This document shows positions 22,254 through 49,999 of a stretch of DNA of 64,000 bases, piece after piece. This DNA comes from an uncultured Clostridia bacterium. GTDB lineage: Bacteria > Bacillota > Clostridia > Christensenellales > UBA1242. The notes beneath the pieces are model-generated. The model worked only from the letters and a program-made list of their open reading frames with translations, was not told the origin of the DNA and made no database searches. Every line of letters starts with the position of its first letter. The stretch's first letter is position 1. The DNA lies in the NCBI GenBank assembly GCA_944384415.1, contig CALWTF010000009.1, positions 30,191-94,190 of the forward strand. The letters run 5' to 3'. The translations under genes were made by a program, and so were the position numbers.

Positions 22254-22291
22254 GGCAAAATAAGAGAAAACATACGAAAAGGAGAAATAAA

Positions 22292-24445: not shown

Positions 24446-24456
24446 AATGAAAATTT

Positions 24457-25155: not shown

Positions 25156-25237
25156 TATAAATATAAAATTTTGATTGTCAAATTTGTTTAATAATGCTAA
25201 AATAGATTTGCTAGTAAATTCAAACAAGGGGAATTAA

Positions 25238-25786: not shown

Positions 25787-25843
25787 CTTTTTCTGTTTTA
25801 TTAAACAAGTTTATTTTTAGTTAAGATAAAAGGAGTATTTTTT

Positions 25844-27808: not shown

Positions 27809-27877
27809 GTTATATTTTAAATAAAAAAGCACTATTTATATTAGTGTCTTTTTTTATTTTATTTTAAAGGGGAAATT

Positions 27878-28120: not shown

Positions 28121-28186
28121 TTCTAGTCATAAATTAAAGTTTTAAACAATACATTATAACAATAAGTTTTTCAAGGAGGAAGCGAA

Positions 28187-32499: not shown

Positions 32500-32535
32500 A
32501 AAAACACAAGTCGAATTGACTTGTGTTTTTTATTT
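32500..32535 (+). terminator. rho-independent terminator after ypeB
   Basis: aaaaacacaagtc-gaatt-gacttgtgtttttt. Confidence 0.75.
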
Positions 32536-32597
32536 TTATTAGTTTACAATTTTTTAAATTTATGTTATTATATTTTAAAATATTAAAGAGGTTCGTG

Positions 32598-33992
32598 ATG
32601 TTTTCTAAAACTGAACTTAAAAATTTAACTGAAGAAAAATTGAATGAATTAGGTATTTTTCAACTTAGAACTATTGCTAGAAACATTGGGGTTCATTTGC
32701 CAACTACAATGAAAAAACAAGATTTGGTTACACAAATTTTAAAAGTAGCAAAGGGTGAAGTTGCTCCATTTGTACCTAAAAACAAAAAAGGAAGACCTGC
32801 TAAATCGTTAATGGATATACAAAGTTCGTGGTCAAGCCAAGGCAGTGACACAAAATCTATTAATCTTGTTAACAACTCTTGGGAATTAGGCAAGTATATA
32901 GAACCTGATTTGTCTTTTGATGCTAATTTTGGTGTGAGTATGCCAACTTTTACTTACAATGAAGATACAGATGATGGACAAATTGTTGAAGGGATTGCTT
33001 TTTGTGAAGCTAACGGTGCAGTTACATTGCATATAGGCGGTATAACAAAATTAAATGAAAATAATATTACAGTAATTAAACCACAAATAGCTATAACTTC
33101 TATGATTAGAACAGGTGATGAAATTAAGTGTTTGTTAAATCCTAGAACAAACAGTGTATTTAAAATTTTATCTATTAATGAAAAAAGTGAACATCAAATT
33201 AAAGTTTTTGATAAATTGCAACCTATTTTACCAAATCAAATTATTAATCTTTGGGGTAATAAAAGTTTAGGTGTAACAAAATTTATTTGTCCTGTTGGTA
33301 AAGGGCAACGCGTTTTGCTTAGAGGTGAAAAGGGTAGTGGTAAATCTGAATTATTAAAAAATATTGCTTTACAATTAGATAAAAGTGAAATAAAAACAAT
33401 TTATGTTGCTTTAGATAAACGACCAGAAGATAAGATTAATTTTTCAAATACAAATATTGATTATGTTTTTTCTTCTTTTGATACAATCCCTTTTAGACAA
33501 ATGTATATGTTAAATTTGGCTATTGAAAAATCAAAAAGAATGTGTGAAAATGGTTTAGATGTTGCTATAATCATTGATGATTTATTTTCGGCTGGTAAAG
33601 CTTATGATTATTGTTTACAAAGAATGGGAAAAGATGAACTTTTAGGATTAGATATAAGTGCTATAATTGCGTTAAAAAAGATTTTAGCGGTAGGAAGAAA
33701 TACAGATACTGGTGGTAGTATAACTTTAATAGGTAGTTTAACTGTTAATAATCAATTTGAAGATTCAAGATTATTATCAATGATTGATGAGATTTGTAAT
33801 TGTCATATAATTACTGATAAAAATCTTTATCAAGGTGGTTTTGAAACTTGGATTTCATTAGATAGTTGGACTGATAATGATAGAAAATTATTATCACCAA
33901 GTGATTTAAATATAGCAAATAAAATTAAGGAAGAATGTAAAAATAAAACAAATATAGAAATTGAAAAAGTTTGCAAAAAATATTTTGAATAA
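32598..33992 (+). CDS. Rho-like transcription termination factor homologue with degenerate catalytic and RNA-binding residues
   Basis: Rho_N-like N-terminus, OB-domain remnant (IRTGDEIKCLLNP), P-loop GEKGSGKS and Walker B DVAIIIDD. It is collinear with E. coli Rho by eye. Confidence 0.75.
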   Translation: MFSKTELKNLTEEKLNELGIFQLRTIARNIGVHLPTTMKKQDLVTQILKVAKGEVAPFVPKNKKGRPAKSLMDIQSSWSSQGSDTKSINLVNNSWELGKYIEPDLSFDANFGVSMPTFTYNEDTDDGQIVEGIAFCEANGAVTLHIGGITKLNENNITVIKPQIAITSMIRTGDEIKCLLNPRTNSVFKILSINEKSEHQIKVFDKLQPILPNQIINLWGNKSLGVTKFICPVGKGQRVLLRGEKGSGKSELLKNIALQLDKSEIKTIYVALDKRPEDKINFSNTNIDYVFSSFDTIPFRQMYMLNLAIEKSKRMCENGLDVAIIIDDLFSAGKAYDYCLQRMGKDELLGLDISAIIALKKILAVGRNTDTGGSITLIGSLTVNNQFEDSRLLSMIDEICNCHIITDKNLYQGGFETWISLDSWTDNDRKLLSPSDLNIANKIKEECKNKTNIEIEKVCKKYFE

Positions 33993-33993
33993 T

Positions 33994-34024
33994 AAAAAAA
34001 CACTGTAAAACAGTGTTTTTTTAT
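33994..34024. terminator. bidirectional terminator shared by the convergent rho-like and giant genes
   Basis: aaaaacactg-taaaa-cagtgttttt flanked by A- and T-runs. The T-run contains the giant gene stop codon. Confidence 0.75.
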
Positions 34025-37000
34025 TTAACACGCATTTTAGTTCTTAATAATACGAATGTAACAGTTAATGCAACTACGACAAGAATAGCAACAACAATTA
34101 AAATTATTGATGCAGTGTTAAGTGGTTCATTTATTGTGATTCGTTGACTCATAACAAGGAACCCACTTTCACTGTAAACTTGTACATAATAAGTGTTTGG
34201 TGCAGATAAAGTAAATGACTGAGGATTAGTGTTTGTTGAGTTTGTTTCATTAATATTAGCAATTTCTGTACCATTAACAACTATTGAACAAGCACCAATT
34301 TGTTGATAAATTAAAGCATTGTTATAACTTATAGTAACTGAAGCAGTTGATGAACTTCCAAATTCTCTTGATGGATTTAATATTGGAGTTTCATCATTAA
34401 TCCAAACATTAAATGTGAAATTTTGCGATGGTGTCATATTTTTTGGTTCTGTTGTAATTGTAATTATAAATTTCCCTATACCTGTTGTTTCTTTTGAAAT
34501 AAGGGTAGAGTAAAGATGTGTTTGACCTGCTTCAAGTAAAGATGATGTTATGTTTTCATATTCATAAATTACATTTCCATTTTCATCAAGTTTTTGTTCT
34601 CCATTTTCATCAAGAACGGCATCACCTTGTTTTAGCACGCTTGTTATTTCATAACCAGATATTTTGGTAACTTCATAAGCTGTTCTAGTTTCATTTGCAT
34701 TAAGAATGGTAAAGTTTGCTTCTCCATAAATATACTTGTTTTGTTCACCACGAATCATAACTTTCAATGAAACACGATATACACCAGGTTTAGTAAATGT
34801 AAAAATGTTATTTGTGTAAGTATAATCAGTTTTCACTTTTTGAAGAACATTATTAAGATAAACACTTGCAGAGAATGTAGTCATTGTATAGAAAGAAACA
34901 TCGTGTAGATTTAATGTTACATTGCTATTATAAACAGCATTTTGTATTGGGGTTTCATTATTTATAAGATAGATAACTTCATATAATATTGTAAGGGTAA
35001 ATGATGGATATTGAACATTAAACATATGCTGTTGATTAACAAAGTTTCTAATTCTTATACTGTAAGTACCAGATTCACTAAGTGAAATTTCACCATTATT
35101 ATATGTTCCAACTAATTCGCCATTAAAGTATAAATCAAGATATATAAAATTAGAATAAACGAAAGGATTAGTTGTTGAGTAACTATTATCTGTGTATGAA
35201 GTGCTCCATTTAATAACAACATTAGGTGCACATTCTTCACAGGTTTTATCTTGAGCGTGTTTGTCATAGTGATTTATATCTTTTGCAATAAGTGTAACCA
35301 TTTTACTTGAGTTTCCTGATTGGTCAACATCTCCACTTCCGGTTCCATCGTTTATTGTCATTGTTGTTAACACTGTACCAGTATATGGAACCAATGTTAC
35401 AGCGTAGAAGTTTTCAACAGTGTGCGAAGTAGTTCCCCAAACTCGATATATTCTTGTATTACCTAAAGTTGCTGCTAATTTTATGCTTAAATCTTTATCT
35501 TCATTACATGAATATGTGAAGTTACGCCAACCTGTTGTTGTGTTTGCTGAATAGAAGAAGTATTGCTCAACAGTTTTTGTAAGTGTAACTGTTCCTGTTC
35601 CGTAAATATCACCCTGGTCGTATGTGTAGTCAAATGTGTATGTAGTTAGGTTAGGGTGTGGGGTTAAAAGTTCACCATTATAATATGCTCCAAATATTGA
35701 TATATCATATGATTGAATTGTGAATTCAATTGATTTAGAAAGTGCTAATCCAAGTGCATTACCAATGCGGATTGTGTAAACACCATCTTCTGTTACTACA
35801 AAACCAGAATTTATGTTTGTTATTTGTCCACTAGGATATTCAATAGTAACATAAGGTGAGAATAGTACATCAGTTAAAGTATTCCAAGAAATTTTTACAT
35901 CTTTTGATGTTGTTTTTTCATTGTCTCCTTGCCATATTTGAACATCACTTGTATCAGTTAAATTTATCTCAGGTAAATATGTATAAATGGCAAATATGAA
36001 TTGTTCAGCATTAGATATAGAGCCATCATCAATATTTATATCATAAAGATAATATGTATTTTTAGGTGAAATAAATTTTAATTCTGCTAGCCCGGTGTTT
36101 GTATCAATAACACATTGCCACAAACTGTTTGTATTGTTTAAGAAATATTGTACATTAACTACACCAGTATTTAAAAGTATATTTCCTGATTCTCTATCTG
36201 TAATTTTTACGCTAATATTTCTAAATGTGTTTGATTGATATTTTAAAGTAATAGGTTCTAGTGTGTGTATTATTCCATTATAAATATAATTTTCAATTGC
36301 TCCTTCAGAGTAAACTAATTCTTTTATTAAAGATGTGTCTACTGGATAGGTGATTATATATGTGTAACCAAAATTATCAGTAAATGTAAATATATAATTT
36401 CCATTTGTTAAGTAATTTAAAATATAAGTATCTGGATTTGTTGATACTGGTTCAGGTAAGGTGAAAGTTGTTCCCGTTGAACTTAATTTAGCAGAGAATG
36501 AAACAATTTGAGTTGCGGCAGTTGACATTGGCATAGTCATATAAAATGAAGTATTATTAATTTGAGTAAATGTTGGTTGTAATTTTTGACCTGGAGTTTT
36601 AATATAAAACTTTAAGTCGTTTCCAACACGATTAGTAATAACAAATTCGATTTTTGAACCGATTAAGTATCTATTCGTTGTTGCTATAGCTTCAATTGAT
36701 TCATTTATGCTTGCTAAAATAGAGTTAATGTCTGAAGTAGGCATTACATCAATTACTGTATAAGGAGCACTAGAATCTGAGCCTATGTTTCTATATTTTA
36801 TTGTAAACCATCTATCAGATGTTGAAATTTTTGTGATTAATAAAGATTCGGCACTAATTGATTGAGCAAGTGATGTGTCACCAAATTGGTCAACAGGCAT
36901 ATCATCATAAATTATATTTGAACCAGCTTCTGTTCCTTCATCAAGTTCTGAAATATAATATGTAGAAGTAGATGTTGCAGTTTGTTTAGCTTCAACAGCT

Positions 37001-40000
37001 AGTGAGCTAAATTTTACATAAACTGTGTATACACGATAGTTTTCAACTGCATCTCTTTCAATAATATCATAATAACCTTCTTGAGTAAATGGTCTTACTA
37101 TTGTAGCATTAGATGGGTAAGAATACCTACTGAAAATACTTGTATTAGACTCAACAAATTTTATTGCACCTGTATTTAAATCATAATCGGTCATACCTTC
37201 AACAACTGTTTGTTTGTACTCATTAGATGATGTGTCAAATTTATCGTAAGGACCACGGACAAAATAAACAGAATCTGTTTCGGTGCTATCATATTGAATT
37301 GGTGAATAATCACTGCTAACAGCAAAAGCATAGTTCTTTAAAAAGTCATAATCTAAATCATAAAGATTAGCAAGAACTTCATCTGTTTTACCTGTAGCTT
37401 GTAAATATTTGTCTGATTCAATTAGCGATTTTAAGTTTTTATAAGGTGATGTATGGTCAATATACACACTTGAAGAGCTTGCAAAATAGGAATAACTGTT
37501 TCCAACTTTATAAAGATTTTGTACTGTATTGTCACCTATATATTGATAATTCGCAGTATATCTAGCGTCCATTTGTGTTCCTTCATATCCATCAACTTCT
37601 GGTGTAGGTGGTAAGTAAAGGTAATAAGCATATCTATCTGTTGTTCCTTCAATTAGTGTTTTTAAATAAACATAATTGTTGCTTGTTTGTGTAAATTCAC
37701 TAGCTGAAGAATAAGATGCATTGATGAGTGCTAAAAGCTCATTTAAAGTTAAATTCATAACTGAATAATCACTTGAGTATATTATTTTAAATTCACTTGA
37801 ATAAGCATTTTCTTCAGGGTTTTCTTCAGTACCTGTAATAGATTTATAAGTGTCTATGCTGTTTGTTACATATATAGGATTGGAAATGGTAACAGGTTTT
37901 GATGTGGTACCTTCGCTATTTGATATTGAATATAATGTTCTAGTTACTGTTACATCATTATAAGCTATTTTTGCAGAATATTCATCTGTCGTATCAGTAA
38001 ATGTCAAACGAACATAATCAGATTTTGTTGAAGAGGTTGCGCTTACATAATCACTAGAACCTGTTTTTTGTTCAAATGTAATACTAGGGCTGTTAGCTGT
38101 TATTTGAAAATTAATAATGCAATAATTAGGTCGGAATGTTGTACCTTTTTCAAACATAACAAGGTCATTAAATGTTCCTTCCATAGTTCCGTTAATATTT
38201 GAAAGGTCAAAAACAAATACTCTGTATGAACCAACTGAACTAAATGCATAAGTTAAATCTTTAATATTATAAAGTCGTTTTGCATTATCACTTAAATCTT
38301 GTTGTCCTATGAAGTGACTGTAAAGTGCTTGATATGCACAACCACTTTGGTTAAAGTATTGAACTAAAACCATAAGATTTGAACTTTGTATATTATCAAC
38401 TAAGCCTTGTAATATATCACTTGCAACATCTGTAGACATATATTTATTTGATATTTCTATATTCAAACTTGGTGAAGTAGCATACGGTAACTCTAAACCA
38501 ATAGGTAAAATATTGCTTGATACTACTGGTGAACCTGAAGCAGTTAGCATTCGTGTTGAACTTGGTTTAAATTGATTAGCAAATTCATTAGCTTCAATAA
38601 CGCCGTTTTCAAAACTGCTAAAAGTGTAACCACCATATTCACTGTAATTTCCGTAATGGTTTGAACCTTTTTCAAAACCAAATGTAAGGTGAGAACCAGT
38701 ATCTATTGTTCCAGTTAAAACTTTTCCACGGTCTACATAATATGTATAAGTTCTATCCTTTACATCTCCTTCTGTTCCATCTACAAAATCGGATTTATAT
38801 TTTCGTACAAAAACATATTTTCCATCTTGACTACCAGCTGCACCAAATGAAGAGCTATAATTAAGTTCTTGTAATGCATAACTATGATAATAAGTTTCGC
38901 CATTTATTGTGAGTTCACGGAATAAAGGATTGTTTTCTCCTAATTTATAAATTAGTGCATCTTCACCAGTTAACATTGGTTCATCGCTGTATGGATAGTT
39001 TTCTGATTCTGTATTTATTGTATCAAGAGGGTAGAAGTACAGATAAACTTCTTGAACCTCAAAATCACTACCACTTTCTTGTTGTCTAAAACTAAAAGTT
39101 ACAAATTGTCGGTTGGTTGAGCGATATTGTTGTAATCTAGCCCTGTTTCCATAAACACCATTTAAATATGTTTCATCAGAAACTCCGCTATTATCAACTG
39201 AGCCATAATGACTAAAGAATGTACCTAATGATTTATCAAAGTTAATTTCTATATCTCTTTTAGGCATTTGGTTATTGCTAATATCTTTCAGGTTTATGGT
39301 ATAGGTATAAAAATCAACATAATTTTCTTCTCCAGTTTCACCTGAATTTGCGTTTAATATAATTTCTGTATTTGGATATATTGTAAAGTTTCCTAATTCA
39401 TCGGCATTAGATGTAGATAGGTAGGTTCGGTGATTATCTTTATCAATAACAACCCAAAGGAAAGTTTGTTCAATAAGACCGGCACCATTCTTTTTAAACA
39501 CTATGTTATTTGTGGTTGGGTCGCTTCCATTTGAGCCACTACCCATACTTCCACCACTACCTTTGAAGCTTGCTTCTTCAATTTCAACAGTAATATAGCT
39601 TTTATCATTACTTGTTGCCATATAGTTATTTAAAGAATTTATTATATAATTATATTTAGAAAAATTTTCACTGTAATTTATTGCGATATTGTTTGGATTT
39701 TCGTTATCAACAATATCTGTAACATCTGATTTGTCATCACTTTCCACAATAGATAGTGCTTTATGTGTACCCCAAGTAAACTTTGTGTTTTTAGAAATAA
39801 CACTAAGTTCTGCAGGGGATTCACCTTCGGCTTGTTGTATCATTTCTGGTGTAACATCTTCAAAAATTGTTATAAATATAGCTTTATTTCCGGCACTGTC
39901 CGACAACAATAATAAACCAAGTCGTGGTGTTGTACATATTTGAGTTGAAAGGAAGGTGAGTTGGCTTGCATTTTCTGCCGTAACAATGGTGTGTTTATAT

Positions 40001-42579
40001 GTCATTAAAGGGGCAAATGTAGAAAATTGTCCATTTGCCGTTACCCAAATTTGATTTTCATAATTTATTTCTTCTGCTAAAAAATTGTCAATTGCATTAA
40101 TAGATGCATATGTATATTGTGCTGTAATACTTGCACCACTTTTTTTATTATCCCAAGTCCAAATAAAGTTTTTAGTTGTAGTTAAGGTAAATGATTCTAA
40201 ACTTGAAATAGTTACATTACTTAAATTAAATGCATCAGTAGAATTTTCATCGGCACCTTGAAGTTTGTTTGATGATGGATTTACTTCAAGAGCTTTTATT
40301 CCACTTATCTCTTGTTTATCAATAGTAAAACTGAATGAAAGGCTAGATTGTTTTGAGTTTGTGTAGTAGATTTTAATTGTATAAATACCATTTCTAGTAC
40401 AAACTGTTGTATCTTCTTTTTTACTTGATAGTAAAGTTGTTCCATTTAAATCTTTAAATACTAAACCATAATAAGGAGTATTGCTTGTTGGTGATACATC
40501 ATATGCTTCACTGTTAAAGTTATAAAGAGAATAAGTAGCAGTAATATTTGCATTAAAAGGACTTGTTACAGACCACGATAAGTATACATTTTTGTTTGTA
40601 AATCCATTGACAGCTAAATTGTTTATGTTATCAAGTTCAATATCGGCGCTTGAAGTTGAATTTGTTGTTAAAATTTTAACACTTGGTGGAGTGTTGGTAA
40701 TGCTAAAAACAAAAACTTGACCAAAATATGCTTGTTGATAACTTATTGTTCCGCTAGCGTTACTATCAGCTACTGGATTTTGGAAAGAAATATAAACTAT
40801 GTAAGTTCCAGCGCTTTCAAACTTTACAGATTTTGACCAGCTAGAAGTTGTTGTTAAAACACCTTTGCTGTTGTAATAGAGATACCAACTTGTATTTGAA
40901 CCAGGATTTAAACTTGCATTGTCAATAAATTTTATTGGAACTTGATTTGTTGAAGCCATTTTAACACCGTATTGACTTGCTGTTTTTTCAAGATAAGATA
41001 ATACTGATGTTTTGTTTTGATTTTCAACAGATGTGTCACTACTCAGCTTATAACTAGATGAATAAATAGTATTTAAAGGAACTGCCATTTCTGGGTTTAA
41101 AAAACTAAAATCACTAGTATAAATATTTTGTATTTCATCGTTTTCATTTACATCAAAAGTGCTATTTTTAAGTTCAACATCACCATTTTCACTTGTGTAT
41201 GTCGCTTGAAAACCAACAATACTTAAACTTTCAGGTAAAGTTAAAGTCATATCTGAAAGTAAAATATTTTCAGCTGACACATACTTACCAATTCCAGTTC
41301 GTAATATACAAGTTTTATCAAAAACATACTCACCAACTTCATCAAATGTAAGTGTTACTTCATAATATCCATTTTCATTTTTTGTATAATATAATCTTTC
41401 AGTTGTTACGGTGGAACCGTATGTTTTAGTAATAGTTAAAACACCTCGTTCTGTTTGATTAGCTAAATATTCAGTATTAAAACTTAAATCATAACTTTCT
41501 TGTTTATTGTAAAGTGTTTTGGTATATGAAATTTTATATTTTTCTGGATTATAAGTTAAAGTAGGATACATTAACACTGTTGGTGCATTTAGTGAAGTAT
41601 ACATACTGGTTTGAGATGAGGAAAAAGTTCCACCAGTAACAACGCTAGTATATATGTTTGTAAACTTAAAATAGTGTTGCTTAGAATATGGTGTATCTTC
41701 AGTTGTCGTACTTCCATCTAATAATCGTTTTGTGTTATCAATTTTTTCAGTATAGTTAAAAGTTGTACTTTCATTTATTTGATTATATGTGTTCTCAGTT
41801 ATTAAATAAAATTTGAATTTTGCTAGTCTACGATAATCTTGTCCATCAGTTAATAAACGATATTGAAGTTCAATTTCATATAAACCTTCAATGTTATTAA
41901 TTTCTGTACCAAAAGTTAAGTCACCTTTATCACTAACATTGTTTCCTAGTGTATAAGTTTTATATGAATAATGAAGAGGTGAATTTGATGAACCTTGTTG
42001 GTCAGAACCATTGATAGCATCAGTTGGAGTAAGTCCGTGTATGTATTGTCTGAAATATTGATTTTCAGCTTGTATATCATCATCAGGATATATAAAATTG
42101 TTTGTTGCAATGTTTTGTCCATTAAGTTTAATTGATGAGCTAAATAACTTAACTTGTGCATTGCTAGGTCCATATCCAAATTCTATATAAACAGCTTCAC
42201 GAGTTGCGGGAGAGGTGAGGGAAGCAGATGTATCAAGCATAACAAAAGGAATATCATTTTCATTTACATAAATTATTTCAGTTGTGTTTTGTGTATCATT
42301 TGGATTGTGTAATTCTGTGTCATTGTTTATAATTTCATTTTCATAATGGTCTGTAACCAAAACCTTTGAAACAGATAAAATGGAACTATCTGTAACAGTA
42401 TTTCCATTTGTATCAGTTTTTATTGCGTTTCGAGTTCCTGTGTTGCTGAAACTTGTTGATGAGTTTTTATATTCATTTGTAAAGTTGTTTATAACAGTAA
42501 AACCACTAAACATTACACATATAGCAATTATAGAAAAAGTGATTAAAAATGAAAGTTTTTTCCCTAAACTTTTTGGCAT
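34021..42579 (-). CDS. giant (2,852 aa) surface protein with N-terminal signal/anchor and C-terminal TM anchor, built from many diverged Ig-like beta modules
   Basis: Uninterrupted 8.56-kb ORF. AAAGGAG RBS before the ATG at 42579. N-terminus KKLSFLITFSIIAICVMFSGF. C-terminus ASIILIVVAILVVVALTVTFVLLRTKMRVK. T/S/N/Y-rich with a recurring G-x-Y-x-[IVF]-x-[IVLF] strand motif. Confidence 0.85.
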   Translation of the reverse strand: MPKSLGKKLSFLITFSIIAICVMFSGFTVINNFTNEYKNSSTSFSNTGTRNAIKTDTNGNTVTDSSILSVSKVLVTDHYENEIINNDTELHNPNDTQNTTEIIYVNENDIPFVMLDTSASLTSPATREAVYIEFGYGPSNAQVKLFSSSIKLNGQNIATNNFIYPDDDIQAENQYFRQYIHGLTPTDAINGSDQQGSSNSPLHYSYKTYTLGNNVSDKGDLTFGTEINNIEGLYEIELQYRLLTDGQDYRRLAKFKFYLITENTYNQINESTTFNYTEKIDNTKRLLDGSTTTEDTPYSKQHYFKFTNIYTSVVTGGTFSSSQTSMYTSLNAPTVLMYPTLTYNPEKYKISYTKTLYNKQESYDLSFNTEYLANQTERGVLTITKTYGSTVTTERLYYTKNENGYYEVTLTFDEVGEYVFDKTCILRTGIGKYVSAENILLSDMTLTLPESLSIVGFQATYTSENGDVELKNSTFDVNENDEIQNIYTSDFSFLNPEMAVPLNTIYSSSYKLSSDTSVENQNKTSVLSYLEKTASQYGVKMASTNQVPIKFIDNASLNPGSNTSWYLYYNSKGVLTTTSSWSKSVKFESAGTYIVYISFQNPVADSNASGTISYQQAYFGQVFVFSITNTPPSVKILTTNSTSSADIELDNINNLAVNGFTNKNVYLSWSVTSPFNANITATYSLYNFNSEAYDVSPTSNTPYYGLVFKDLNGTTLLSSKKEDTTVCTRNGIYTIKIYYTNSKQSSLSFSFTIDKQEISGIKALEVNPSSNKLQGADENSTDAFNLSNVTISSLESFTLTTTKNFIWTWDNKKSGASITAQYTYASINAIDNFLAEEINYENQIWVTANGQFSTFAPLMTYKHTIVTAENASQLTFLSTQICTTPRLGLLLLSDSAGNKAIFITIFEDVTPEMIQQAEGESPAELSVISKNTKFTWGTHKALSIVESDDKSDVTDIVDNENPNNIAINYSENFSKYNYIINSLNNYMATSNDKSYITVEIEEASFKGSGGSMGSGSNGSDPTTNNIVFKKNGAGLIEQTFLWVVIDKDNHRTYLSTSNADELGNFTIYPNTEIILNANSGETGEENYVDFYTYTINLKDISNNQMPKRDIEINFDKSLGTFFSHYGSVDNSGVSDETYLNGVYGNRARLQQYRSTNRQFVTFSFRQQESGSDFEVQEVYLYFYPLDTINTESENYPYSDEPMLTGEDALIYKLGENNPLFRELTINGETYYHSYALQELNYSSSFGAAGSQDGKYVFVRKYKSDFVDGTEGDVKDRTYTYYVDRGKVLTGTIDTGSHLTFGFEKGSNHYGNYSEYGGYTFSSFENGVIEANEFANQFKPSSTRMLTASGSPVVSSNILPIGLELPYATSPSLNIEISNKYMSTDVASDILQGLVDNIQSSNLMVLVQYFNQSGCAYQALYSHFIGQQDLSDNAKRLYNIKDLTYAFSSVGSYRVFVFDLSNINGTMEGTFNDLVMFEKGTTFRPNYCIINFQITANSPSITFEQKTGSSDYVSATSSTKSDYVRLTFTDTTDEYSAKIAYNDVTVTRTLYSISNSEGTTSKPVTISNPIYVTNSIDTYKSITGTEENPEENAYSSEFKIIYSSDYSVMNLTLNELLALINASYSSASEFTQTSNNYVYLKTLIEGTTDRYAYYLYLPPTPEVDGYEGTQMDARYTANYQYIGDNTVQNLYKVGNSYSYFASSSSVYIDHTSPYKNLKSLIESDKYLQATGKTDEVLANLYDLDYDFLKNYAFAVSSDYSPIQYDSTETDSVYFVRGPYDKFDTSSNEYKQTVVEGMTDYDLNTGAIKFVESNTSIFSRYSYPSNATIVRPFTQEGYYDIIERDAVENYRVYTVYVKFSSLAVEAKQTATSTSTYYISELDEGTEAGSNIIYDDMPVDQFGDTSLAQSISAESLLITKISTSDRWFTIKYRNIGSDSSAPYTVIDVMPTSDINSILASINESIEAIATTNRYLIGSKIEFVITNRVGNDLKFYIKTPGQKLQPTFTQINNTSFYMTMPMSTAATQIVSFSAKLSSTGTTFTLPEPVSTNPDTYILNYLTNGNYIFTFTDNFGYTYIITYPVDTSLIKELVYSEGAIENYIYNGIIHTLEPITLKYQSNTFRNISVKITDRESGNILLNTGVVNVQYFLNNTNSLWQCVIDTNTGLAELKFISPKNTYYLYDINIDDGSISNAEQFIFAIYTYLPEINLTDTSDVQIWQGDNEKTTSKDVKISWNTLTDVLFSPYVTIEYPSGQITNINSGFVVTEDGVYTIRIGNALGLALSKSIEFTIQSYDISIFGAYYNGELLTPHPNLTTYTFDYTYDQGDIYGTGTVTLTKTVEQYFFYSANTTTGWRNFTYSCNEDKDLSIKLAATLGNTRIYRVWGTTSHTVENFYAVTLVPYTGTVLTTMTINDGTGSGDVDQSGNSSKMVTLIAKDINHYDKHAQDKTCEECAPNVVIKWSTSYTDNSYSTTNPFVYSNFIYLDLYFNGELVGTYNNGEISLSESGTYSIRIRNFVNQQHMFNVQYPSFTLTILYEVIYLINNETPIQNAVYNSNVTLNLHDVSFYTMTTFSASVYLNNVLQKVKTDYTYTNNIFTFTKPGVYRVSLKVMIRGEQNKYIYGEANFTILNANETRTAYEVTKISGYEITSVLKQGDAVLDENGEQKLDENGNVIYEYENITSSLLEAGQTHLYSTLISKETTGIGKFIITITTEPKNMTPSQNFTFNVWINDETPILNPSREFGSSSTASVTISYNNALIYQQIGACSIVVNGTEIANINETNSTNTNPQSFTLSAPNTYYVQVYSESGFLVMSQRITINEPLNTASIILIVVAILVVVALTVTFVLLRTKMRVK

Positions 42580-42791
42580 ATTTTCTCCTTTGGATAAACG
42601 ATAGCCGTTCACCTATTTTTTTGTTTTATTTCCTTTGTATATGTAAATAAGTTTAGCATATATAAATTATATACACAACCAAAATTTGACATTATATAAC
42701 AAATTTTCTCATAAATTTATTGTTTGTTTTTAATGATTAATATATACAAAAATACATTAAAAAATATTTTAAAATGTTCGTTAAAAATTTA

Positions 42792-42858
42792 TGTAAAACA
42801 GGGTACTATGCAATTAATAATTAATACTATGCATTTGATTTTACGAATAGTTTTTGTT
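42792..42858 (+). repeat. left copy of an imperfect direct repeat (DR-L)
   Basis: TGTAAAACAGGGTACTATGCAA ... TTTTACGAATAGTTTTTGTT. Compare 55441-55511. Confidence 0.6.
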
Positions 42859-42892
42859 TTATAATGATAAAATCTTTTTATTTATTATTTAT

Positions 42893-42941
42893 CATAAAAA
42901 TAAAGACACAAAATTATAAAAGTTTTGTGTCTTTATTTTTT
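42893..42941 (-). terminator. terminator downstream of the virD4-like gene
   Basis: 12-bp stem aaagacacaaaa / ttttgtgtcttt (42902-42934) flanked by A- and T-runs. Confidence 0.75.
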
Positions 42942-44877
42942 ACTGTCGAAAAACCTTTCGGTTTCTTTCTCTTATGTTATAGAAAACTTTTTCTTCATCC
43001 AAAAACCTAGCTGGGGCATAGTCTTCTGGTGTTTTTTCCATATTATAAAGGTCAGGTGATTTAAAGTAACCATCAAATTTTGAACGCAATGCTTTTTCAC
43101 CATACATACTAATAATAAATTCACCTTGTTTAAGTAAACTAAGTTCATCAGGGTGAATAAGTGGTGCGCTTGCTTTACTTGTAGAGGTACTTGTTTGTGT
43201 TCCATCTTTTGCTTTGCTTTCTGTTTTTGAAACACTGTCAACCGAAGTGTGACCACATCTGTTACTAAATTCTTCTTTTGTTTTTAAATCAATAGTTCCA
43301 AGGAAGTAGTGAATGTTACAGTTGTTTTTTATGGTTTCAGCTACTGTATCACCATATCTTGCGTTTATTTGAGCATAATTTTGAACTGCTAAAATCATAC
43401 ATATATTACGACTACGAGCAACCGTTATTATAGTGTCAAGACGAGGAATGGTTGGTAACTGACCAAATTCATCAAGCATAAAATATACACGGCGAGGAAG
43501 TGTTTTACCTTCACGATGATTTGCTATGTCAACTAATTCCTTATAAAGTTGTAAAATACACATTGTTGAAATTGCGTGTCTTGTTTCTTTTTCATCTGGC
43601 ACTTTTATAAACAATGCTGTAGGCTTGTCTGCAAATGTTGTAAAATCCATTTCATCTTTACTTGTAGTAAAACATATTCCAGTATCTGCAAACATACTTA
43701 CAAATTGAGTTATTATACCAAAGAAACTTCGTGATGTTGAAACAGCATTGTTAAGAACTGCTGAAGATAATGTTGGTGCAACAGAAAATTTAGACCTTCC
43801 TTGAAAATACTTTTGCAATGTCATAAATGGTCTGTCTGGGTCATTGTCTCTTTCATTACATATTTTATAAAGATTAAAAAAGTTAAATTTTTCTTCCGTC
43901 ATTCCTAAATCTTTATATGCACTGTCTTCAAGCATAGCCATCATAACACCAAGAACAAAATCTTTTGCACCTCGTTCCCAACTTTGGTCGGTTTGAGATT
44001 TTATAGGACACAAGGTGGTTGCGATATCGTTTAAATCTTCAAAAGCTGAATCGTAAAGTTGTTTTTTTAGTGCTTTTAAATCGTTTTCTAATAAAGAACG
44101 GGTAGGATAGGCAACACCATCAAATTCATACCATTCTTTATTATACACTGGTGATATAACTCGCAATCCAAGGTCGGCAGGGTTTTCATCGGTGTGTACT
44201 TTTACTTCATTTAATAAATGTATACTTCGTTGAAATGCTCTAAAAGGTCTAGCCATTGGGTTCCAACAAGTTGATGCATAAGCATCACGCAAGTCCAAAA
44301 CTTTTATGTCATAACCTTCTTTTTTTAATTTGCTACAACACAACTCATATATTTCACCTTTCATATCATTAAAAACAAAAGAAGGTTTAGTTTTTGTTGA
44401 ACTTAAGATTTGAACGCTTGGAACAACAAAGTTAGCTGTTTTACCACTACCAGTTGTACCAATTACTATTGAGTGCCAAGTTTTTGTGAACATATTTATT
44501 TTAACATTTTTTCCAACTTTCTCAGCACGCAAAACTGGTCCATCTGGGTGTTTTGCTAATTCTGTAAATAAACTGTATTCATATTTTCTGTTAAGTTCAT
44601 CTTCTGTTAACCATTCAGAATCAAAAAATTGTTTTGTTTTATTTGTTTTTTTAGCATCTTTAAATAAACTTTTTCCATCTGAAAACTTTAATAAAGTCCA
44701 AATAACAAAACAAATATAAAGAAGTGCTGTTACTGGGAAAAACATTGGGTCGCTTGGATTTATTACAAGTTGTCCCTCTGTTATTATTCCCCAAATTCCA
44801 CTAAAAATAATACCACCAACAAGGCATACAAAAATCATTCCTATGTATAGTAGCAAATATTTTAAAATCTTTGACAT
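42940..44877 (-). CDS. type IV coupling protein (VirD4/TraG/TraD family ATPase)
   Basis: Two N-terminal TM helices, Walker A GTTGSGKTANFVVPS, Walker B YFMLDEFGQLP, and the downstream RSRNI...AVQN motif typical of T4CPs. Confidence 0.85.
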   Translation of the reverse strand: MSKILKYLLLYIGMIFVCLVGGIIFSGIWGIITEGQLVINPSDPMFFPVTALLYICFVIWTLLKFSDGKSLFKDAKKTNKTKQFFDSEWLTEDELNRKYEYSLFTELAKHPDGPVLRAEKVGKNVKINMFTKTWHSIVIGTTGSGKTANFVVPSVQILSSTKTKPSFVFNDMKGEIYELCCSKLKKEGYDIKVLDLRDAYASTCWNPMARPFRAFQRSIHLLNEVKVHTDENPADLGLRVISPVYNKEWYEFDGVAYPTRSLLENDLKALKKQLYDSAFEDLNDIATTLCPIKSQTDQSWERGAKDFVLGVMMAMLEDSAYKDLGMTEEKFNFFNLYKICNERDNDPDRPFMTLQKYFQGRSKFSVAPTLSSAVLNNAVSTSRSFFGIITQFVSMFADTGICFTTSKDEMDFTTFADKPTALFIKVPDEKETRHAISTMCILQLYKELVDIANHREGKTLPRRVYFMLDEFGQLPTIPRLDTIITVARSRNICMILAVQNYAQINARYGDTVAETIKNNCNIHYFLGTIDLKTKEEFSNRCGHTSVDSVSKTESKAKDGTQTSTSTSKASAPLIHPDELSLLKQGEFIISMYGEKALRSKFDGYFKSPDLYNMEKTPEDYAPARFLDEEKVFYNIRERNRKVFRQ

Positions 44878-45187: not shown

Positions 45188-45580
45188 ATGCAATTTATGT
45201 CTTTAATGGCAGATATTGCCACCAAATTTGCTCTATTAACTGCTGGTGGTGGGGATGATACAACTACAAATAACGATTTCGATTGGGGTGATTGGGAGTT
45301 TTTAAAGGAAATTGTTGAAGCAATTGACTGGGTAATGATTCCTATTATGATTTTGGTTGGTACTGCTGGTCTTATTTATGCCGTTGTTTTAGGTGTAAAC
45401 CTTGCAAGAGCAGATAGTGCAGAAAAAATCAAAGAAGCAAAATCTCGTATGATTAATGCCATTATTGGTTTGGTGTCAATTATTGCTTTGTGTTTATTGT
45501 TGTGGTTGTTTATCGAAAATGTTCCAACAATTTTCGGGTTCACGCAAGAGAGAACAACTGGTGCTTTAATTGGTATTTAA
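45188..45580 (+). CDS. VirB2/TrbC-like (pilin-like) small two-TM conjugal-transfer-type protein
   Basis: 130 aa. Hydrophobic leader, acidic loop, then two TM helices (VMIPIMILVGTAGLIYAVVLGV and AIIGLVSIIALCLLLWLFI) separated by a short basic loop. It is the first gene of the plus-strand T4SS block. GGAGGGG RBS. Confidence 0.5.
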   Translation: MQFMSLMADIATKFALLTAGGGDDTTTNNDFDWGDWEFLKEIVEAIDWVMIPIMILVGTAGLIYAVVLGVNLARADSAEKIKEAKSRMINAIIGLVSIIALCLLLWLFIENVPTIFGFTQERTTGALIGI

Positions 45581-45657: not shown

Positions 45658-47553
45658 GTGAGTAAAAAGTCAACGAAATTATTTAGTTTGTTTTTCACTT
45701 TTGCCTTCGTCTTTTTTTCTTTTACAGGTTGTTCATTAACGCTAACAAAACCAAGTAATTATTATGAGGGATTATTTGGTGGAATGAATCCTAATAATTT
45801 TGATAACAAACCATTACCTGATGTTGAATGGGGTACAGGTGGTGAAACTTATCCTTCTATTACTTACGAACAAAAACAAGAAGCTTTAAATGAAGCTGCT
45901 GAAACTTACACAGGAATAAGAACAGTAAGTGTGCCTGTTGCAGGAGATGAATCGGGATATCAACAAACAGATTATGAACGAGCAAGATTTTATAAAAATG
46001 TATCTGACCAATATGAAATTTTAGCAAAATATATTTTGGTGTCTTTGGTAGGACAATTTGGTTTAGGTTCGGATTTAACAGAAATCGAAAGTTCTGTTTA
46101 TGGTGTTGAAACCACAGGCGATTATGTTACTTCAATTACAACTTATCAACCAGAAAATCGTGAAGATTTTTCTGGTTATTTAGGTGATACTAGTGAGCGT
46201 TCAATTGATAGGACTGTTTCCAGTTGGGTAATTACCGATGATGGTTTATGTGTTCCTGTTGAAAATATTACTACTGGGGAATATACTTGTCCTGGTCAAC
46301 ATACTCCTGAAATTGTTTATACAAATGATTATGCTTGGAAACTAAATTTGGTTGATGAAGGTGATTTGTCTGCAACCGAGTATTTGCAGTTATATCTTGA
46401 TAAATATTTAAAATTTGTTCAATTAAGAATTATGGAAATTGATTTGCAACAAGTTGCTACAAATTATGATTCAACAAATGAAACAGTTATTGATGAAAAA
46501 ATAAAAAAATATTCAAGTGAAATATCTAAATTGGGTGTAGAAATAACTTCTGATGAACAAAGTGCAATTATTAATATGATTAAAAATGAAGTAGTTGGAA
46601 TGACAGCAATAAACTATGATAATTCATCAAAAACTTTTACTGAACCTACTTTTATAAAAAGTTATAATGATTCACAAGTTGTTCATGGTTATGATATTAA
46701 TAATAACGGAATATATGGTGATACAATTGTAATAACACCTAATAATGGTTTTTATTGTGGTTTTGAGCAAGCAGTAAATTTAGTTGTTCCAGAACTTCAA
46801 GAAATTATAAAAACATTTCCTGATTACTATGCGATGGAAATATGTGATGTTAATCCAACAGATTTTTACAACATAGGGGAAGAAGTTGAAAGCGGTGAAA
46901 AGCAGGTTTTAAACAATATTCCGCAAGCTGAATATAAAAGTGTTTCTTTTATAACAGAACAAGAATGGTTTTTTGATGCTGTTTATATAGCAGTATCTGC
47001 TGATACCGACTTTATATTAAATTTATATTTAAGAGTTGTTGTTAACGGTGAAGAATTTACTGTTAAAATTGGTTGTTTAAATGTTGATAGTACTAAAAGT
47101 TGGGAATATTTAGGTGAATCGGAAGAAGAAAGCACTGATACAAGTGATGAAGCTTTAAGAAACGAGTTGTTAGACTCATCAATAAAACGCAATATGTTGT
47201 TAGTTGATTTAAGTGTTATATTATCAACAGAACAATTAGATTTGCTTTATCAAGGGCACACAAATAGTGATTTGCTTAAACAAAATGTATATTCTACAAA
47301 TGAAAATCGTTGGGGATATCATACCAATTCTAAAAATAATACAGAGGTTTCTCCAACAATTTTAGAATTAACTGAAAGTTTGTATATTAATATGTTAATT
47401 GAAAACCAAAAAAGCACTTTTGCGCTTAATAACGAAAATAACACTTTTTATGAAATTATTTTTGATATAGAAAAAGAAAAGGAAACAGATAAACATCCAT
47501 TTACTTTTCTTGTTTGGACAGCTCAATTTAGTGATGGTTTGTTAGAAACTTAG
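45658..47553 (+). CDS. lipoprotein, unknown function (T4SS-associated)
   Basis: GTG start after a GAGGGAGG RBS. Signal peptide with lipobox FSFTG-C. Acidic, with no recognisable domain. Confidence 0.7.
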   Translation: MSKKSTKLFSLFFTFAFVFFSFTGCSLTLTKPSNYYEGLFGGMNPNNFDNKPLPDVEWGTGGETYPSITYEQKQEALNEAAETYTGIRTVSVPVAGDESGYQQTDYERARFYKNVSDQYEILAKYILVSLVGQFGLGSDLTEIESSVYGVETTGDYVTSITTYQPENREDFSGYLGDTSERSIDRTVSSWVITDDGLCVPVENITTGEYTCPGQHTPEIVYTNDYAWKLNLVDEGDLSATEYLQLYLDKYLKFVQLRIMEIDLQQVATNYDSTNETVIDEKIKKYSSEISKLGVEITSDEQSAIINMIKNEVVGMTAINYDNSSKTFTEPTFIKSYNDSQVVHGYDINNNGIYGDTIVITPNNGFYCGFEQAVNLVVPELQEIIKTFPDYYAMEICDVNPTDFYNIGEEVESGEKQVLNNIPQAEYKSVSFITEQEWFFDAVYIAVSADTDFILNLYLRVVVNGEEFTVKIGCLNVDSTKSWEYLGESEEESTDTSDEALRNELLDSSIKRNMLLVDLSVILSTEQLDLLYQGHTNSDLLKQNVYSTNENRWGYHTNSKNNTEVSPTILELTESLYINMLIENQKSTFALNNENNTFYEIIFDIEKEKETDKHPFTFLVWTAQFSDGLLET

Positions 47554-47683: not shown

Positions 47684-49999
47684 TTGCAGTTAAGTTTGTT
47701 TCAACTGGGTTGGGTAATTGCTGATGCCATAACTGGTTTAATTAATTGGCTTGCAGATAAAATTGGTGGCTTTATTGGTGATGCTATTGAATCATTTGCT
47801 AGTATTTTTATCACTACTATTTCAGCAATTGCATATGGTTTGCAAATGGGTTTCTTTATTATTATGGACTGCATTCAACTTATGTTCCGTAAAATAGCGG
47901 GGCTTGATTCGTATTATTATCAAGGTACATCGCAAACTGGTGATATGGTGCTTGATTTTATTGCCAATCCTACAGTTCAAGGTGTTTTTTGGAGTGTAAT
48001 GGCAGTTGCTTGTATTATGTTGTTTATTTCTACTTTTATTGCAATTATAAAAAGTGAAATAACAGAAAAAGGCGCAAATCCGAAAGGTCCTATTATCGGA
48101 AAGGCATTTAAATCTATTCTTTATTTTGCAATGGTTCCAGTGGTTTCAATTATGGGAATTTTCTTTGCAAATGTTTTACTAAAAACTTTGGATGTTGCAA
48201 CTGCTGTTAACAATACAACTAAACTTAGTGGAATGGTGTTCCAAGCTGCGTGTGTAGATGGAAATCGAGCGCAAGGAGATGCGGAATTTGCTGCCAAAAT
48301 AGCAAGAGATTTTGGTGTTTCTGCAAATAATGATACATATACTGTCGCAGATGCGGTAAACAAAGCGTTTGCACAAGCCAAACAAATCACAGTTACTACA
48401 GACCCTTTTTCTGAACCATATATGTTTGCAATAAGTATAGGTGCCTTTGTTGGATATGATGCTATAACGGGAACTAGAACTGCCGATATAATGAACTTTA
48501 CATTGGTTTATTATTATTATGATTTAATGATTACTGGATATGATTACTTGATAGGCTTTATCGGTGGTTTTATAGCGTGTTCTATGTTGTTATCTACATG
48601 CTTAGGTTGTATACAGCGAATTTTTGAATTAACAATTTTATTTGTAGTTGCACCACCTTTGATTGCTATGATGCCTATGGATAATGGTGCAAAATATAAT
48701 CAATGGCGTGGTGAGTTTGTTAAGCGTGTGTTTGGTCTTTATGGTCCTATTATTGGTTTAAATTTAATGTTTATGATTTTAACTATAATTGGTGATTATA
48801 CATTGTTCCCAGATGAGCCAGGATATGCTATACATAATGGTTTAACAAAATTGTTCTTTATGATTGTAGCGTTAACATCTTTAAAAGAATTTGTTGCTTT
48901 AATTGCTATCTTGGTTGGTGGTAATGATGCTTACAGCCAAGGTGAATCTAAAAAAGAACCAGTAACAAATATGGCTGGTAAAATTGGTTCAGGTACACGA
49001 AGACTTGCACAATCTATGGTTCCAAAATCAGTTAGAGATAAAGTAAAAGGTAAAGTAGATAGTGTTGGAAGAGATGAAAATGGTGAAATTAAAGGTGGTT
49101 GGAACAAAGCAAAACATGCATTAGTAAATCCTGGAAGTACAATTGGGGGAATTGCTAATAAAAAAGATGGTTTGATTAGTGATTTGATGACAATTTCTGG
49201 TGTTGGAAAGGGTTTAAAAGATAAAGCATTGTTAGAAAATCCTAACAGCATTTGGGGTGCATTAATGCCTGGTGCAGTTGATGCTGCTGATAAACGCAAA
49301 AAAGACAAAGAAGCAAAAGATGCTCGTGAAGCCAAAGAGGCTGAAATGATGAATGAAGAAAATTTCAGACCTGAGTTGGAAAAAAAGAAAAGAGCAAATC
49401 AACTTAAAAATTATGCAGACGCTGAAGCAAAAGGTGGAGTAAACCCTCAAAAAGAAGCTTTAAACCTTATTAACAGCAAAAGGCAAGAAGTGCGAGATAA
49501 AATTGATGCACTTAAATCTGAAAATCCAGAAGCAAATACTAATGCGTATGAAGCTTTGTATGACCAATTGGGCGACTATGCAAATAAAGTGCAAAATGGT
49601 GATTTAGTTGCTGGCGTTGACTTCGAAGAAGGTAAAATGCCAGGAGTAGGTGGGACACCAGGTGGGGCAACAGATGTTTCAACAAACTTGGCTGATATTG
49701 AAAACTTATTACGAAATGGCATAAAAGTTAAACTTGACGATGGAGCAACCGTTAAATTATCTTCTGACGATAGCCCTATTACCAAATTAGCTAGTGTAGC
49801 CGAAGCATTGTCATCAGCTGCCGAAGATTTAAAAGCTGGTGCTTCATCTTCAAAATCAATGCTTTCTGGTGCTGCTAGCAAGTTGGGTGTATCGGCAGGT
49901 GCAATAACAAAAGCTGCAAAAGGTTTAAAACCTGAAACATACACTCCAGGGAAAGCTCCTTCAGCAAAAACACCACCATCTGACCCGATGTTTGGATAG
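47684..49999 (+). CDS. VirB6/TrbL-like polytopic membrane protein with a ~330-aa hydrophilic C-terminal tail
   Basis: TTG start after an AGGAGGA RBS. About 7-8 TM helices within residues 1-430, then K/E/A/G-rich low-complexity sequence. Confidence 0.55.
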   Translation: MQLSLFQLGWVIADAITGLINWLADKIGGFIGDAIESFASIFITTISAIAYGLQMGFFIIMDCIQLMFRKIAGLDSYYYQGTSQTGDMVLDFIANPTVQGVFWSVMAVACIMLFISTFIAIIKSEITEKGANPKGPIIGKAFKSILYFAMVPVVSIMGIFFANVLLKTLDVATAVNNTTKLSGMVFQAACVDGNRAQGDAEFAAKIARDFGVSANNDTYTVADAVNKAFAQAKQITVTTDPFSEPYMFAISIGAFVGYDAITGTRTADIMNFTLVYYYYDLMITGYDYLIGFIGGFIACSMLLSTCLGCIQRIFELTILFVVAPPLIAMMPMDNGAKYNQWRGEFVKRVFGLYGPIIGLNLMFMILTIIGDYTLFPDEPGYAIHNGLTKLFFMIVALTSLKEFVALIAILVGGNDAYSQGESKKEPVTNMAGKIGSGTRRLAQSMVPKSVRDKVKGKVDSVGRDENGEIKGGWNKAKHALVNPGSTIGGIANKKDGLISDLMTISGVGKGLKDKALLENPNSIWGALMPGAVDAADKRKKDKEAKDAREAKEAEMMNEENFRPELEKKKRANQLKNYADAEAKGGVNPQKEALNLINSKRQEVRDKIDALKSENPEANTNAYEALYDQLGDYANKVQNGDLVAGVDFEEGKMPGVGGTPGGATDVSTNLADIENLLRNGIKVKLDDGATVKLSSDDSPITKLASVAEALSSAAEDLKAGASSSKSMLSGAASKLGVSAGAITKAAKGLKPETYTPGKAPSAKTPPSDPMFG

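Follow-up and report, generated by a model that had tools for sequence, protein, structure and literature searches.

What is the product of a 2,852-codon gene that stands beside a type IV secretion system (T4SS) in an uncultured Clostridia bacterium, and do the two work together? We examined this question in the window, by which we mean the whole analysed stretch of 64,000 nucleotides (positions 30,191 to 94,190 of contig CALWTF010000009.1, assembly GCA_944384415.1), where the giant gene lies on the minus strand at 34021..42579. The architecture of its product, the fold class, the family with its gradient of conservation, the gene neighbourhood and the chromosomal fixation of the locus were established here. 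The giant gene is a vertically inherited core gene of an uncultured, low-GC, spore-forming clade of gut Clostridia related to Christensenellales. We propose that its product is a cell-contact fibre working with the neighbouring T4SS in Christensenellales-related bacteria, and we assign to this proposal a probability of roughly 0.45.

The coding sequence comprises 2,852 codons plus the stop according to the list of open reading frames (ORFs) and its translation, and the same list extends the frame to an upstream GTG (34021-42612, minus strand). We prefer the ATG at 42579 as start codon because a Shine-Dalgarno sequence read directly upstream (AAGGAG, 42585..42590, minus strand) leaves a 5-nt spacer to it and because the N-terminus MPKSLGKK is common to four of the six close homologues. 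The uninterrupted frame with an ATG supported by a ribosome-binding site, as described in a first-pass annotation made from the DNA letters, is thus confirmed on the minus strand. The deduced protein has 2,852 aa, a mass of 319.7 kDa and a pI of 4.57; it is acidic, contains only 11 Cys, and Thr, Ser and Asn together make up 31% of its residues.

To what family does such a protein belong? A word-indexed homology search returned only 17-20 relatives, all of 2,415-2,933 aa and without Pfam domains, and badly understates the family. This count was corrected when a profile of the C-terminal 779 positions was searched exhaustively, which gave 565 clusters at 50% identity (503 at E <= 1e-10 and 424 at E <= 1e-30), with lengths between 2,300 and 3,100 aa in nearly all of them. 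Among the 166 best representatives, which include those found earlier, 143 are longer than 2,300 aa (median 2,698, maximum 3,720) and the profile match runs to the C-terminus in every case. Twenty aligned members are collinear over their full length at 20-25% identity, and identity among close homologues, which is 32-42% in residues 1-200, climbs towards the C-terminus and reaches 65-78% there. Nine other full-length assemblies of the same species encode proteins that are 99.6-99.8% identical and exactly 2,852 aa long. The only names carried by family members are "hypothetical protein", from metagenome-assembled genomes (MAGs) of Firmicutes or Clostridia. The relatives come from uncultured Clostridia/Eubacteriales gut MAGs (mouse, rabbit, human), the named ones being one Candidatus Onthoplasma MAG (Christensenellaceae in the NCBI taxonomy) and one Christensenellaceae MAG.

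Hydropathy located only two hydrophobic segments in the giant protein, at about residues 10-32 and 2823-2845, from which the protein had at first been described as doubly membrane-anchored. The two segments are real, but a second anchor could not be established. The N-terminal segment and the basic stretch before it (residues 1-34; 42478..42579, minus strand) have the hydropathy of a Sec signal. According to a crude rule, an A-x-A-type signal-peptidase site stands just after the N-terminal hydrophobic core in 102 of the 143 full-length family members (for example VQA↓ED and VYA↓EE); no obvious site of this kind was seen in the protein of the window. This family pattern points to a Sec signal combined with a single C-terminal anchor, and the N-terminal helix is, judged by these sequences, probably a Sec signal rather than a second anchor.

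The C-terminal anchor module (residues 2818-2852; 34024..34128, minus strand; hydropathy and AlphaFold2) consists of EPLNTAS, a 22-residue helix and a 7-residue tail (LRTKMRVK), and its helix is modelled at residues 1170-1197 of the C-terminal AlphaFold2 tile. The transmembrane helix with a basic tail noted earlier is therefore confirmed, the protein ending in ...LLRTKMRVK, and so is the lack of LPXTG or any other sortase motif, since LP.T[GAN], NP.TG, [SN]P.TG and LA.TG occur nowhere in the giant protein; no sortase-like gene was seen in the window. Across the family the consensus of the module is EPLN[TAS]-x-[AS]-I-I, helix, and L-R-x-[KR]-M-[KR]-[VI]-[RK] as the very last residues. Of the 166 best representatives, 164 have R at -7, 117 have M at -4 and 138 have PLN[TAS] or a motif close to it, and the module ranks first among the conserved stretches of the last 480 residues. 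Its strongly conserved outline of motif, helix and basic tail is also that of C-terminal sorting signals of the sortase, exosortase or archaeosortase type; no second carrier of the EPLNT-helix-tail arrangement was found among 1,419 other ORFs of the window and the related loci, which gives no evidence of a signal shared with other proteins. The giant protein represents a large, unannotated, lineage-specific family with an unusual and highly conserved anchor. More than 500 clusters of it are missed by present domain libraries, and the conserved C-terminal motif can be used for finding family members.

What lies between the two hydrophobic segments was approached with two AlphaFold2 tiles, which were built on a 19-sequence alignment and cover residues 1-1200 and 1653-2852, i.e. 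84% of the protein. The C-terminal tile (mean predicted local distance difference test score, pLDDT, 78.7) is nearly all beta-strand and closes in the C-terminal helix. The N-terminal tile (mean pLDDT 66.7) is also nearly all beta-strand and is confident at roughly residues 340-480, 540-600 and 730-1000. Compared with the PDB by Foldseek at E <= 1e-3, the C-terminal tile had 286 matches and the N-terminal tile 18, every one of them an array of immunoglobulin (Ig), FN3 or MG domains; examples are NUP210, the GhpA grappling hook, contactin, MDGA1, alpha2-macroglobulin, complement, the S-layer proteins Sap, EA1 and SbsB, and SiiE. The BFVD viral fold library yielded only generic FN3/Ig arrays of phage proteins. 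Both models are thus tandem arrays of beta-sandwich modules of roughly 100 residues, and they support the view that the giant protein is a string of highly diverged Ig-like modules, as first suggested from strand signatures. Counting predicted strands, we estimate their number at roughly two dozen.

At the level of sequence, these modules escape the usual libraries. No Pfam family is found in the giant protein even at E <= 1, nothing significant was obtained with NCBIfam, no chain was matched in a PDB sequence search with the family profile, and the precomputed Pfam annotation is empty for 20 of 20 homologues. The earlier assignment to PKD, Big or CARDB-type domains consequently stands for the fold but not for Pfam membership: PKD, Big, CARDB and HYR share the fold and the style of strand signature, whereas none of these models scores the giant protein at E <= 1. 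The eleven beta-strand strings quoted in the first-pass annotation are all present, but only eight fit the pattern that it gave, G-x-Y-x-[IVF]-x-[IVLF]. A strict match not quoted there (GYYEVTL, residue 404) brings the number to nine, compared with 0.50 +/- 0.69 and a maximum of 3 in 2,000 shuffles. Within the models, seven of eight G-x-Y motifs begin a predicted strand and the eighth (residue 404) stands just ahead of one. Another strand signature, D-x-A-G-N, is found beside G-x-Y-x-V-x-V. The extreme divergence of the modules is borne out as well, since internal similarity is weak in a profile self-comparison (best P = 1.3e-4) and no Pfam model matches. No RGD motif occurs in the giant protein. 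A CxxC pair (TCEECAP, residues 2447-2450, about window 35230-35241) is invariant in close homologues and absent in distant ones.

The fold matches raise the possibility of a surface-anchored protease trap of the alpha2-macroglobulin type. Indeed, the top Foldseek matches of the N-terminal tile are the MG arrays of A2ML1, alpha2-macroglobulin and complement C3/C5, and E. coli alpha2-macroglobulin is among the matches of the C-terminal tile. However, TM-scores to these proteins are 0.07-0.13 at 6-9% identity, which indicates a generic match between beta-sandwich repeats only; the models, which cover 84% of the protein, show no helical thioester domain, and the family profile finds no PDB chain by sequence. 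The thioester motif CXEQ (searched as C[GLA]EQ) is lacking from the giant protein, and for this reason the alpha2-macroglobulin identity was rejected; we regard such a trap as scarcely credible. An S-layer protein of the Firmicutes kind was likewise rejected, because Pfam finds neither SLH nor CWB2 and the anchor is a transmembrane helix.

GhpA of Aureispira and SiiE of Salmonella resemble the giant protein in kind: they too are very long beta-sandwich chains reaching another cell, and both are among the Foldseek matches. They differ in belonging to Gram-negative bacteria and in sharing only about 8-11% identity with the giant protein, whose modules are individually distinct and collinear across the family. 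GhpA and SiiE are exported by type IX or type I secretion systems, are built of many similar repeats and are not known to have a C-terminal transmembrane-helix anchor. A repeat-expansion adhesin of the BAP, RTX or SiiE type was considered and rejected: no tandem repeats are present in the DNA, the length is constant within the species, the family is collinear and the self-similarity does not go beyond P = 1.3e-4. The absence of nucleotide-level tandem repetition, already pointed out in the first-pass annotation, was confirmed by the program TRF, which gives only a trivial 24-nt match in the giant gene.

Does the giant gene belong with the T4SS? Its upstream co-directional neighbour encodes a VirD4-type coupling protein (42940..44877, minus strand), recognised by the Pfam domains T4SS-DNA_transf, TraG-D_C and TrwB_AAD_bind and by NCBIfam conju_CD1115 (271 bits, cutoff 250). 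The next genes are on the plus strand. The first encodes a candidate VirB2-like pilin with two transmembrane segments (45188..45580; Pfam PF18895, E = 9e-7), which scores 35 bits against NCBIfam Mbov_0395, below the cutoff of 40. Then come a 631-aa protein with an N-terminal transmembrane segment by hydropathy (45658..47553), a polytopic VirB6-like channel protein of the Mycoplasma type with about seven transmembrane segments (47684..49999; hydropathy; NCBIfam MMCAP2_0566, 125 bits, cutoff 90) and a VirB4 ATPase with two N-terminal transmembrane segments (50138..52771; Pfam P-loop_TraG). The VirB4 protein matches NCBIfam VirB4_plasma over its full length with 585 bits for a cutoff of 590. It has 612 homologues at E <= 1e-60; the best 120 listed are full-length and 54-83% identical, plus one fragment, and one homologue comes from an 828-kb contig of a Christensenellaceae MAG. 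The hydrophobic segments of VirB4 (about residues 14-76) may be a fused VirB3-like part. A soluble 763-aa protein (52884..55175, plus strand) is the last before the MnmA flank and a possible member of the T4SS.

Two of these products have no family. The 631-aa protein matches nothing in Pfam, NCBIfam, PHROGs or PDB sequences and shows no BLAST similarity to the 822-aa gene found at the same position in the related locus L032; similarly, the 763-aa protein has no Pfam, NCBIfam, PHROG or PDB match and is unlike the 1,094-aa gene at its position in L032 (BLAST). From these comparisons, the two slots would appear to be either fast-evolving or replaced. As judged from its sequences, the T4SS set seems closest to that of the integrative conjugative elements (ICEs) of Mycoplasma, in which Mbov_0395 (pilin-like), Mbov_0396/MMCAP2_0566 and Mbov_0397 (VirB4) correspond to the pilin candidate, the polytopic protein and VirB4 of the window. 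It differs in that VirB4 (585/590 bits) and the pilin candidate (35/40) remain just under the cutoffs and in that no integrase or mobility gene was detected. A comparable giant Ig-array protein is not known from the ICEs of Mycoplasma.

The giant gene itself is framed by two hairpins, which a consensus terminator scan demanding three G-C pairs had missed and which were recovered by direct folding. The first (33991..34025) is a bidirectional terminator common to the giant gene and the convergent rho-like gene; it folds on both strands (-16.2 kcal/mol with z -6.1, and -15.7 kcal/mol with z likewise about -6), with none of 200 shuffles as stable, and the shared terminator predicted in the first-pass annotation is real. 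The second (42896..42940, minus strand; -17.8 kcal/mol, z -6.5) stands directly 3' of the VirD4 stop codon, between VirD4 and the giant gene. Given these hairpins on both sides, the giant gene appears as its own transcription unit. The AT-rich intergenic stretch upstream of it (42613..42895, minus strand) is the presumed location of its promoter; no specific promoter was called, a consensus scan being uninformative in DNA of 30% GC (63 sites for 70 expected).

We compared the neighbourhoods of the giant gene in related loci of up to 10 kb on either side and distinguished three classes of context. In class A (the window, L001/L002/L004, L003, L018, L020, L023, L025, L027 and L033, with L024 as a variant), T4SS genes are followed in most cases by VirD4 and the giant gene on the same strand, facing a Rho-YpeB-SleB-SpoIIR-SipL block. 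VirD4 adjoins the giant gene in L001, L003, L018, L019, L020, L023, L025, L027 and L033. In L024 about 7.5 kb separate the giant gene from an upstream VirD4, which is placed beyond the T4SS genes, and in L019 the VirD4-giant pair is intact though the other T4SS genes have moved away. In class B (L006-L010, L012-L014), a nucleoside hydrolase and a GT2-TPR gene precede the giant gene, which is followed by L1, NusG and SecA; L013 alone was scanned with Pfam, and the other loci were placed by matching ORF sizes. In class C (L017, L022 and, by their position in the tree, probably L028-L030), the giant gene stands between SpoIIE and ThrRS. At least 11 distinct deep-branching loci show the T4SS next to the giant gene; two derived clades and L015 do not. 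When a neighbour-joining tree was built from the last 800 residues, the loci of class A fell on many deep branches and those of B and C into one derived clade each, so that T4SS adjacency looks ancestral.

Three further genes were noticed in these loci. In L007, of the class B clade, about 6 kb separate the giant gene from an upstream pilin-like ORF (2612-3259) that is 40% identical to the pilin candidate of the window (tblastn E about 1e-13). The clade otherwise has no T4SS gene nearby, and this ORF may be a remnant or a dispersed part of a T4SS. In L023, a larger second ORF (20832-29219) stands just downstream of the giant gene; its called product of 5,324 aa runs off the locus and has no BLAST similarity to the giant family. 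In L017 (1-3975) and L022 (1-3965), the giant gene is preceded, at a distance of about 6-9 kb, by the gene of a Big_2 protein of about 2,100 aa, whose neighbours encode an ABC-transporter ATPase and a 544-aa protein.

A comparison with L032/L033, on a scaffold of 195,831 bp, bears on the mobility of the block. The whole block stands there between the same housekeeping flanks as in the window, with SipL-SpoIIR-SleB-YpeB-Rho on one side and MnmA, TM2, GAPDH, M29 and class-II fructose-bisphosphate aldolase (FBA) on the other, at a VirB4 identity of only 56%. We conclude that the T4SS and the giant gene have a fixed place in the chromosome, are passed on vertically and do not form a recently acquired element; by this synteny, the T4SS appears domesticated in the chromosome. 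The direct repeats said in the first-pass annotation to bracket the T4SS genes, just outside of which the giant gene would lie, found no support: a search for them gave only AT-rich matches of 21-44 nt with 70-87% identity, which have the look of chance, and the synteny shows vertical inheritance.

This result weighs on the suggestion that the giant protein is a PrgB-like aggregation substance of a conjugative element, clumping donor and recipient for DNA transfer. The suggestion draws on the adjacency to VirD4, the pilin candidate, the VirB6-like protein and VirB4, on the size and surface location of the protein, its C-terminal helix and its basic tail, and on the dependence of Gram-positive T4SSs on surface adhesins for contact between donor and recipient (PMC12102498). 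PrgB/Asc10, from enterococcal conjugative plasmids of the MPF-FATA class, is itself a large surface protein beside a Gram-positive-type T4SS, has a C-terminal hydrophobic helix with a basic tail and keeps two cells in contact for the T4SS to act, which is also the role proposed for the giant protein. However, PrgB has about 1,300 aa, a defined adhesin domain and an LPXTG wall anchor attached by sortase, and is encoded on a mobile plasmid, whereas the giant protein has 2,852 aa, a membrane anchor, no LPXTG and no recognisable domain (neither PrgB, antigen I/II nor any other in Pfam), and is encoded by a chromosomal core gene. Among the scanned ORFs of the window none was found to have a relaxase or integrase domain, convincing flanking repeats were not detected, and the same housekeeping flanks in distant relatives argue that the block is not a mobile element. 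The giant gene is moreover a conserved, single-copy, collinear and constant-length family member and not accessory cargo. We therefore abandon the first-pass suggestion of a PrgB-like substance, taken here to belong to a mobile T4SS, as very improbable.

The other side of the giant gene raises the possibility of a role in sporulation. To its left, on the plus strand, are SipL, SpoIIR, SleB, YpeB and the rho-like gene. Were the giant protein to belong to the envelope during sporulation or to the spore, linking mother cell and forespore, for instance, or forming a spore appendage, its gene would lie near sporulation genes through acting with them. This would suit SipL, SpoIIR, SleB, YpeB and Spo0A as neighbours in one context class and SpoIIE in another, and sporulation genes are unexpectedly kept in the related reduced-genome family UBA1242 (PMC12306168). 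Yet the context with L1, NusG and SecA has no sporulation neighbours, in the window the giant gene and the sporulation block lie on opposite strands and converge, and no similarity to a known spore protein was found in Pfam, NCBIfam or PDB sequences, so that we hold this role to be improbable. In the rho-like gene of the window (32523-33992), Rho_N and the ATPase domain are matched and Pfam reports no Rho RNA-binding domain; Rho_RNA_bind is seen at this position in several relatives.

We return to the proposal of a cell-contact fibre working with the T4SS, against which several observations weigh. The giant gene is parted from VirD4 by its own promoter region and by the strong hairpin at 42896-42940, and for these reasons it is not obviously co-transcribed with the T4SS. 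Classes B and C carry it without any T4SS gene within 10 kb, and in L015 (Candidatus Onthoplasma) it adjoins YpeB, no T4SS gene being detected in the flank. The first-pass annotation had held that orthologues widely present without T4SS genes would argue for an independent function: two derived clades, with no T4SS gene within 10 kb, may point in that direction; the deep branches keep the adjacency to VirD4. The adjacency to Rho-YpeB-SleB is as conserved as that to VirD4, and the neighbourhood may accordingly reflect general synteny and low rearrangement in small genomes instead of coupling. No variable site was found in residues 1-600 among the ten same-species assemblies, and the distal tip thus lacks the within-species diversification typical of many host-binding adhesins; together with the constant 2,852 aa, this indicates that the giant protein is not a repeat-number-variable or phase-variable adhesin. 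The T4SS has a pilin candidate of its own that could provide contact, and Pfam recognises no binding domain in the giant protein. Finally, the window encodes a class-II FBA, which is reported absent from family UBA1242 (PMC12306168); perhaps the organism comes from a neighbouring family, or perhaps that generalisation is incomplete.

Several of these points fit an independent, lineage-specific surface protein that would function apart from the T4SS, either by adhering to mucus, food particles or other cells or as an envelope component serving as coat or spacer; its adjacency to the T4SS would be inherited synteny. Such a protein would agree with a transcription unit closed by hairpins on both sides, with a Rho/YpeB flank as conserved as the VirD4 flank and with the two clades in which the gene has moved among housekeeping genes, away from T4SS genes. 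The Foldseek matches to the S-layer proteins Sap, EA1 and SbsB, the acidic, Thr/Ser/Asn-rich composition (31%) and the neighbouring GT2-TPR glycosyltransferase in one clade are also in line with it. It accounts less well for the co-directional VirD4-giant adjacency, which holds at 25% identity between giant proteins, and for the pair in L019, which has outlasted a rearrangement removing the other T4SS genes. Moreover, Pfam finds no SLH, CWB2 or other wall-binding domain, and the strict conservation of the juxtamembrane motif and tail suggests a specific membrane partner over a passive anchor. We consider an independent surface protein the chief rival of the contact fibre and quite possible, although we rather doubt it.

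If the giant protein is a contact fibre acting with the T4SS, we picture its action as follows. It would be exported by Sec and adopt a type-I membrane topology, the single C-terminal helix and the 7-residue basic tail holding it in the cytoplasmic membrane. The other residues, roughly 2,780 in number, make up a chain of some two dozen non-repetitive Ig-like modules, each conserved in its own right; such a chain would be long enough to cross the wall and extend for something like 100 nm. Binding of the partner cell might fall to the distal N-terminal modules, which evolve faster. At the other end, the highly conserved modules near the membrane could, together with the EPLNT motif, the helix and the LRxKMRVK tail, dock the protein to membrane machinery that is itself conserved, with VirD4 and the VirB6-like channel as possible partners, and contact and transfer would then coincide. 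Four elements of this scheme are inferences: that the protein adheres, what its partner is, that it is physically linked to the T4SS, and that the window organism leads a reduced-genome life.

Farther left of the sporulation block are SecG, RNase R, SmpB, tmRNA, NrdD/G and transketolase, the tmRNA gene (17973-18374, tag peptide AENNAKTYAMPSTSFVAAYA) coming directly after SmpB and RNase R. On the right of the T4SS block are MnmA, TM2, GAPDH, the M29 peptidase and the FBA (62919-63914, 316 bits). Two ORFs, 18407-19663 (418 aa, with an N-terminal transmembrane segment) and 56831-58858 (675 aa), had no family match in any library tried.

What would such a fibre mean for these bacteria? Members of UBA1242 (Christensenellales, including Onthoplasma) have genomes under 1 Mb, keep sporulation genes and lack standard transporters (PMC12306168). 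They are predicted to depend on partner cells, and the same paper mentions neither a T4SS nor giant proteins (PMC12306168). Patescibacteria have chromosomal T4SSs derived from the MPF-FATA class (MPF, mating pair formation), mostly without relaxase and often with VirB2-like pilins, and in one cultured strain, Ca. Southlakia epibionticum, the T4SS cluster is essential for epibiotic growth (PMC12102498). The T4SS of the window is alike in being of Gram-positive type and chromosomal, with a VirB2-like pilin candidate and no relaxase detected, and some relatives of the window organism have small, host-dependent genomes as well. It differs in belonging to another phylum, that of a spore-forming Clostridia whose VirB4 matches the Mycoplasma ICE model. 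Furthermore, a phylum-wide bioinformatic survey of Patescibacteria detected no PrgB-like adhesin (PMC12102498), whereas in the window the conserved gene next to VirD4 encodes a giant surface protein. Giant Ig-array surface fibres are known as a kind; what looks ancestral here is the pairing of one with a domesticated T4SS.

The most far-reaching form of the proposal, in which a domesticated T4SS of the Mycoplasma ICE type and a dedicated 320-kDa Ig-array fibre make up an organ for attaching to another cell and exchanging material with it, is in our view unlikely as it stands. If true, it would be an independently evolved Firmicutes counterpart of the T4SS-dependent epibiosis of Patescibacteria, and the EPLNT-helix-LRxKMRVK module would be the plug of the fibre into the secretion machine. 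In a genome under 1 Mb the giant gene would fill about 1% of the total. No contact apparatus has been proposed so far for reduced-genome gut Firmicutes such as UBA1242 (PMC12306168), and a giant protein beside a chromosomally fixed T4SS with no detectable relaxase is a concrete candidate for one. The parallel with the T4SS of Patescibacteria makes co-occurrence, co-expression, interaction and binding by the tip testable questions, and the giant protein may be how these bacteria touch other cells.

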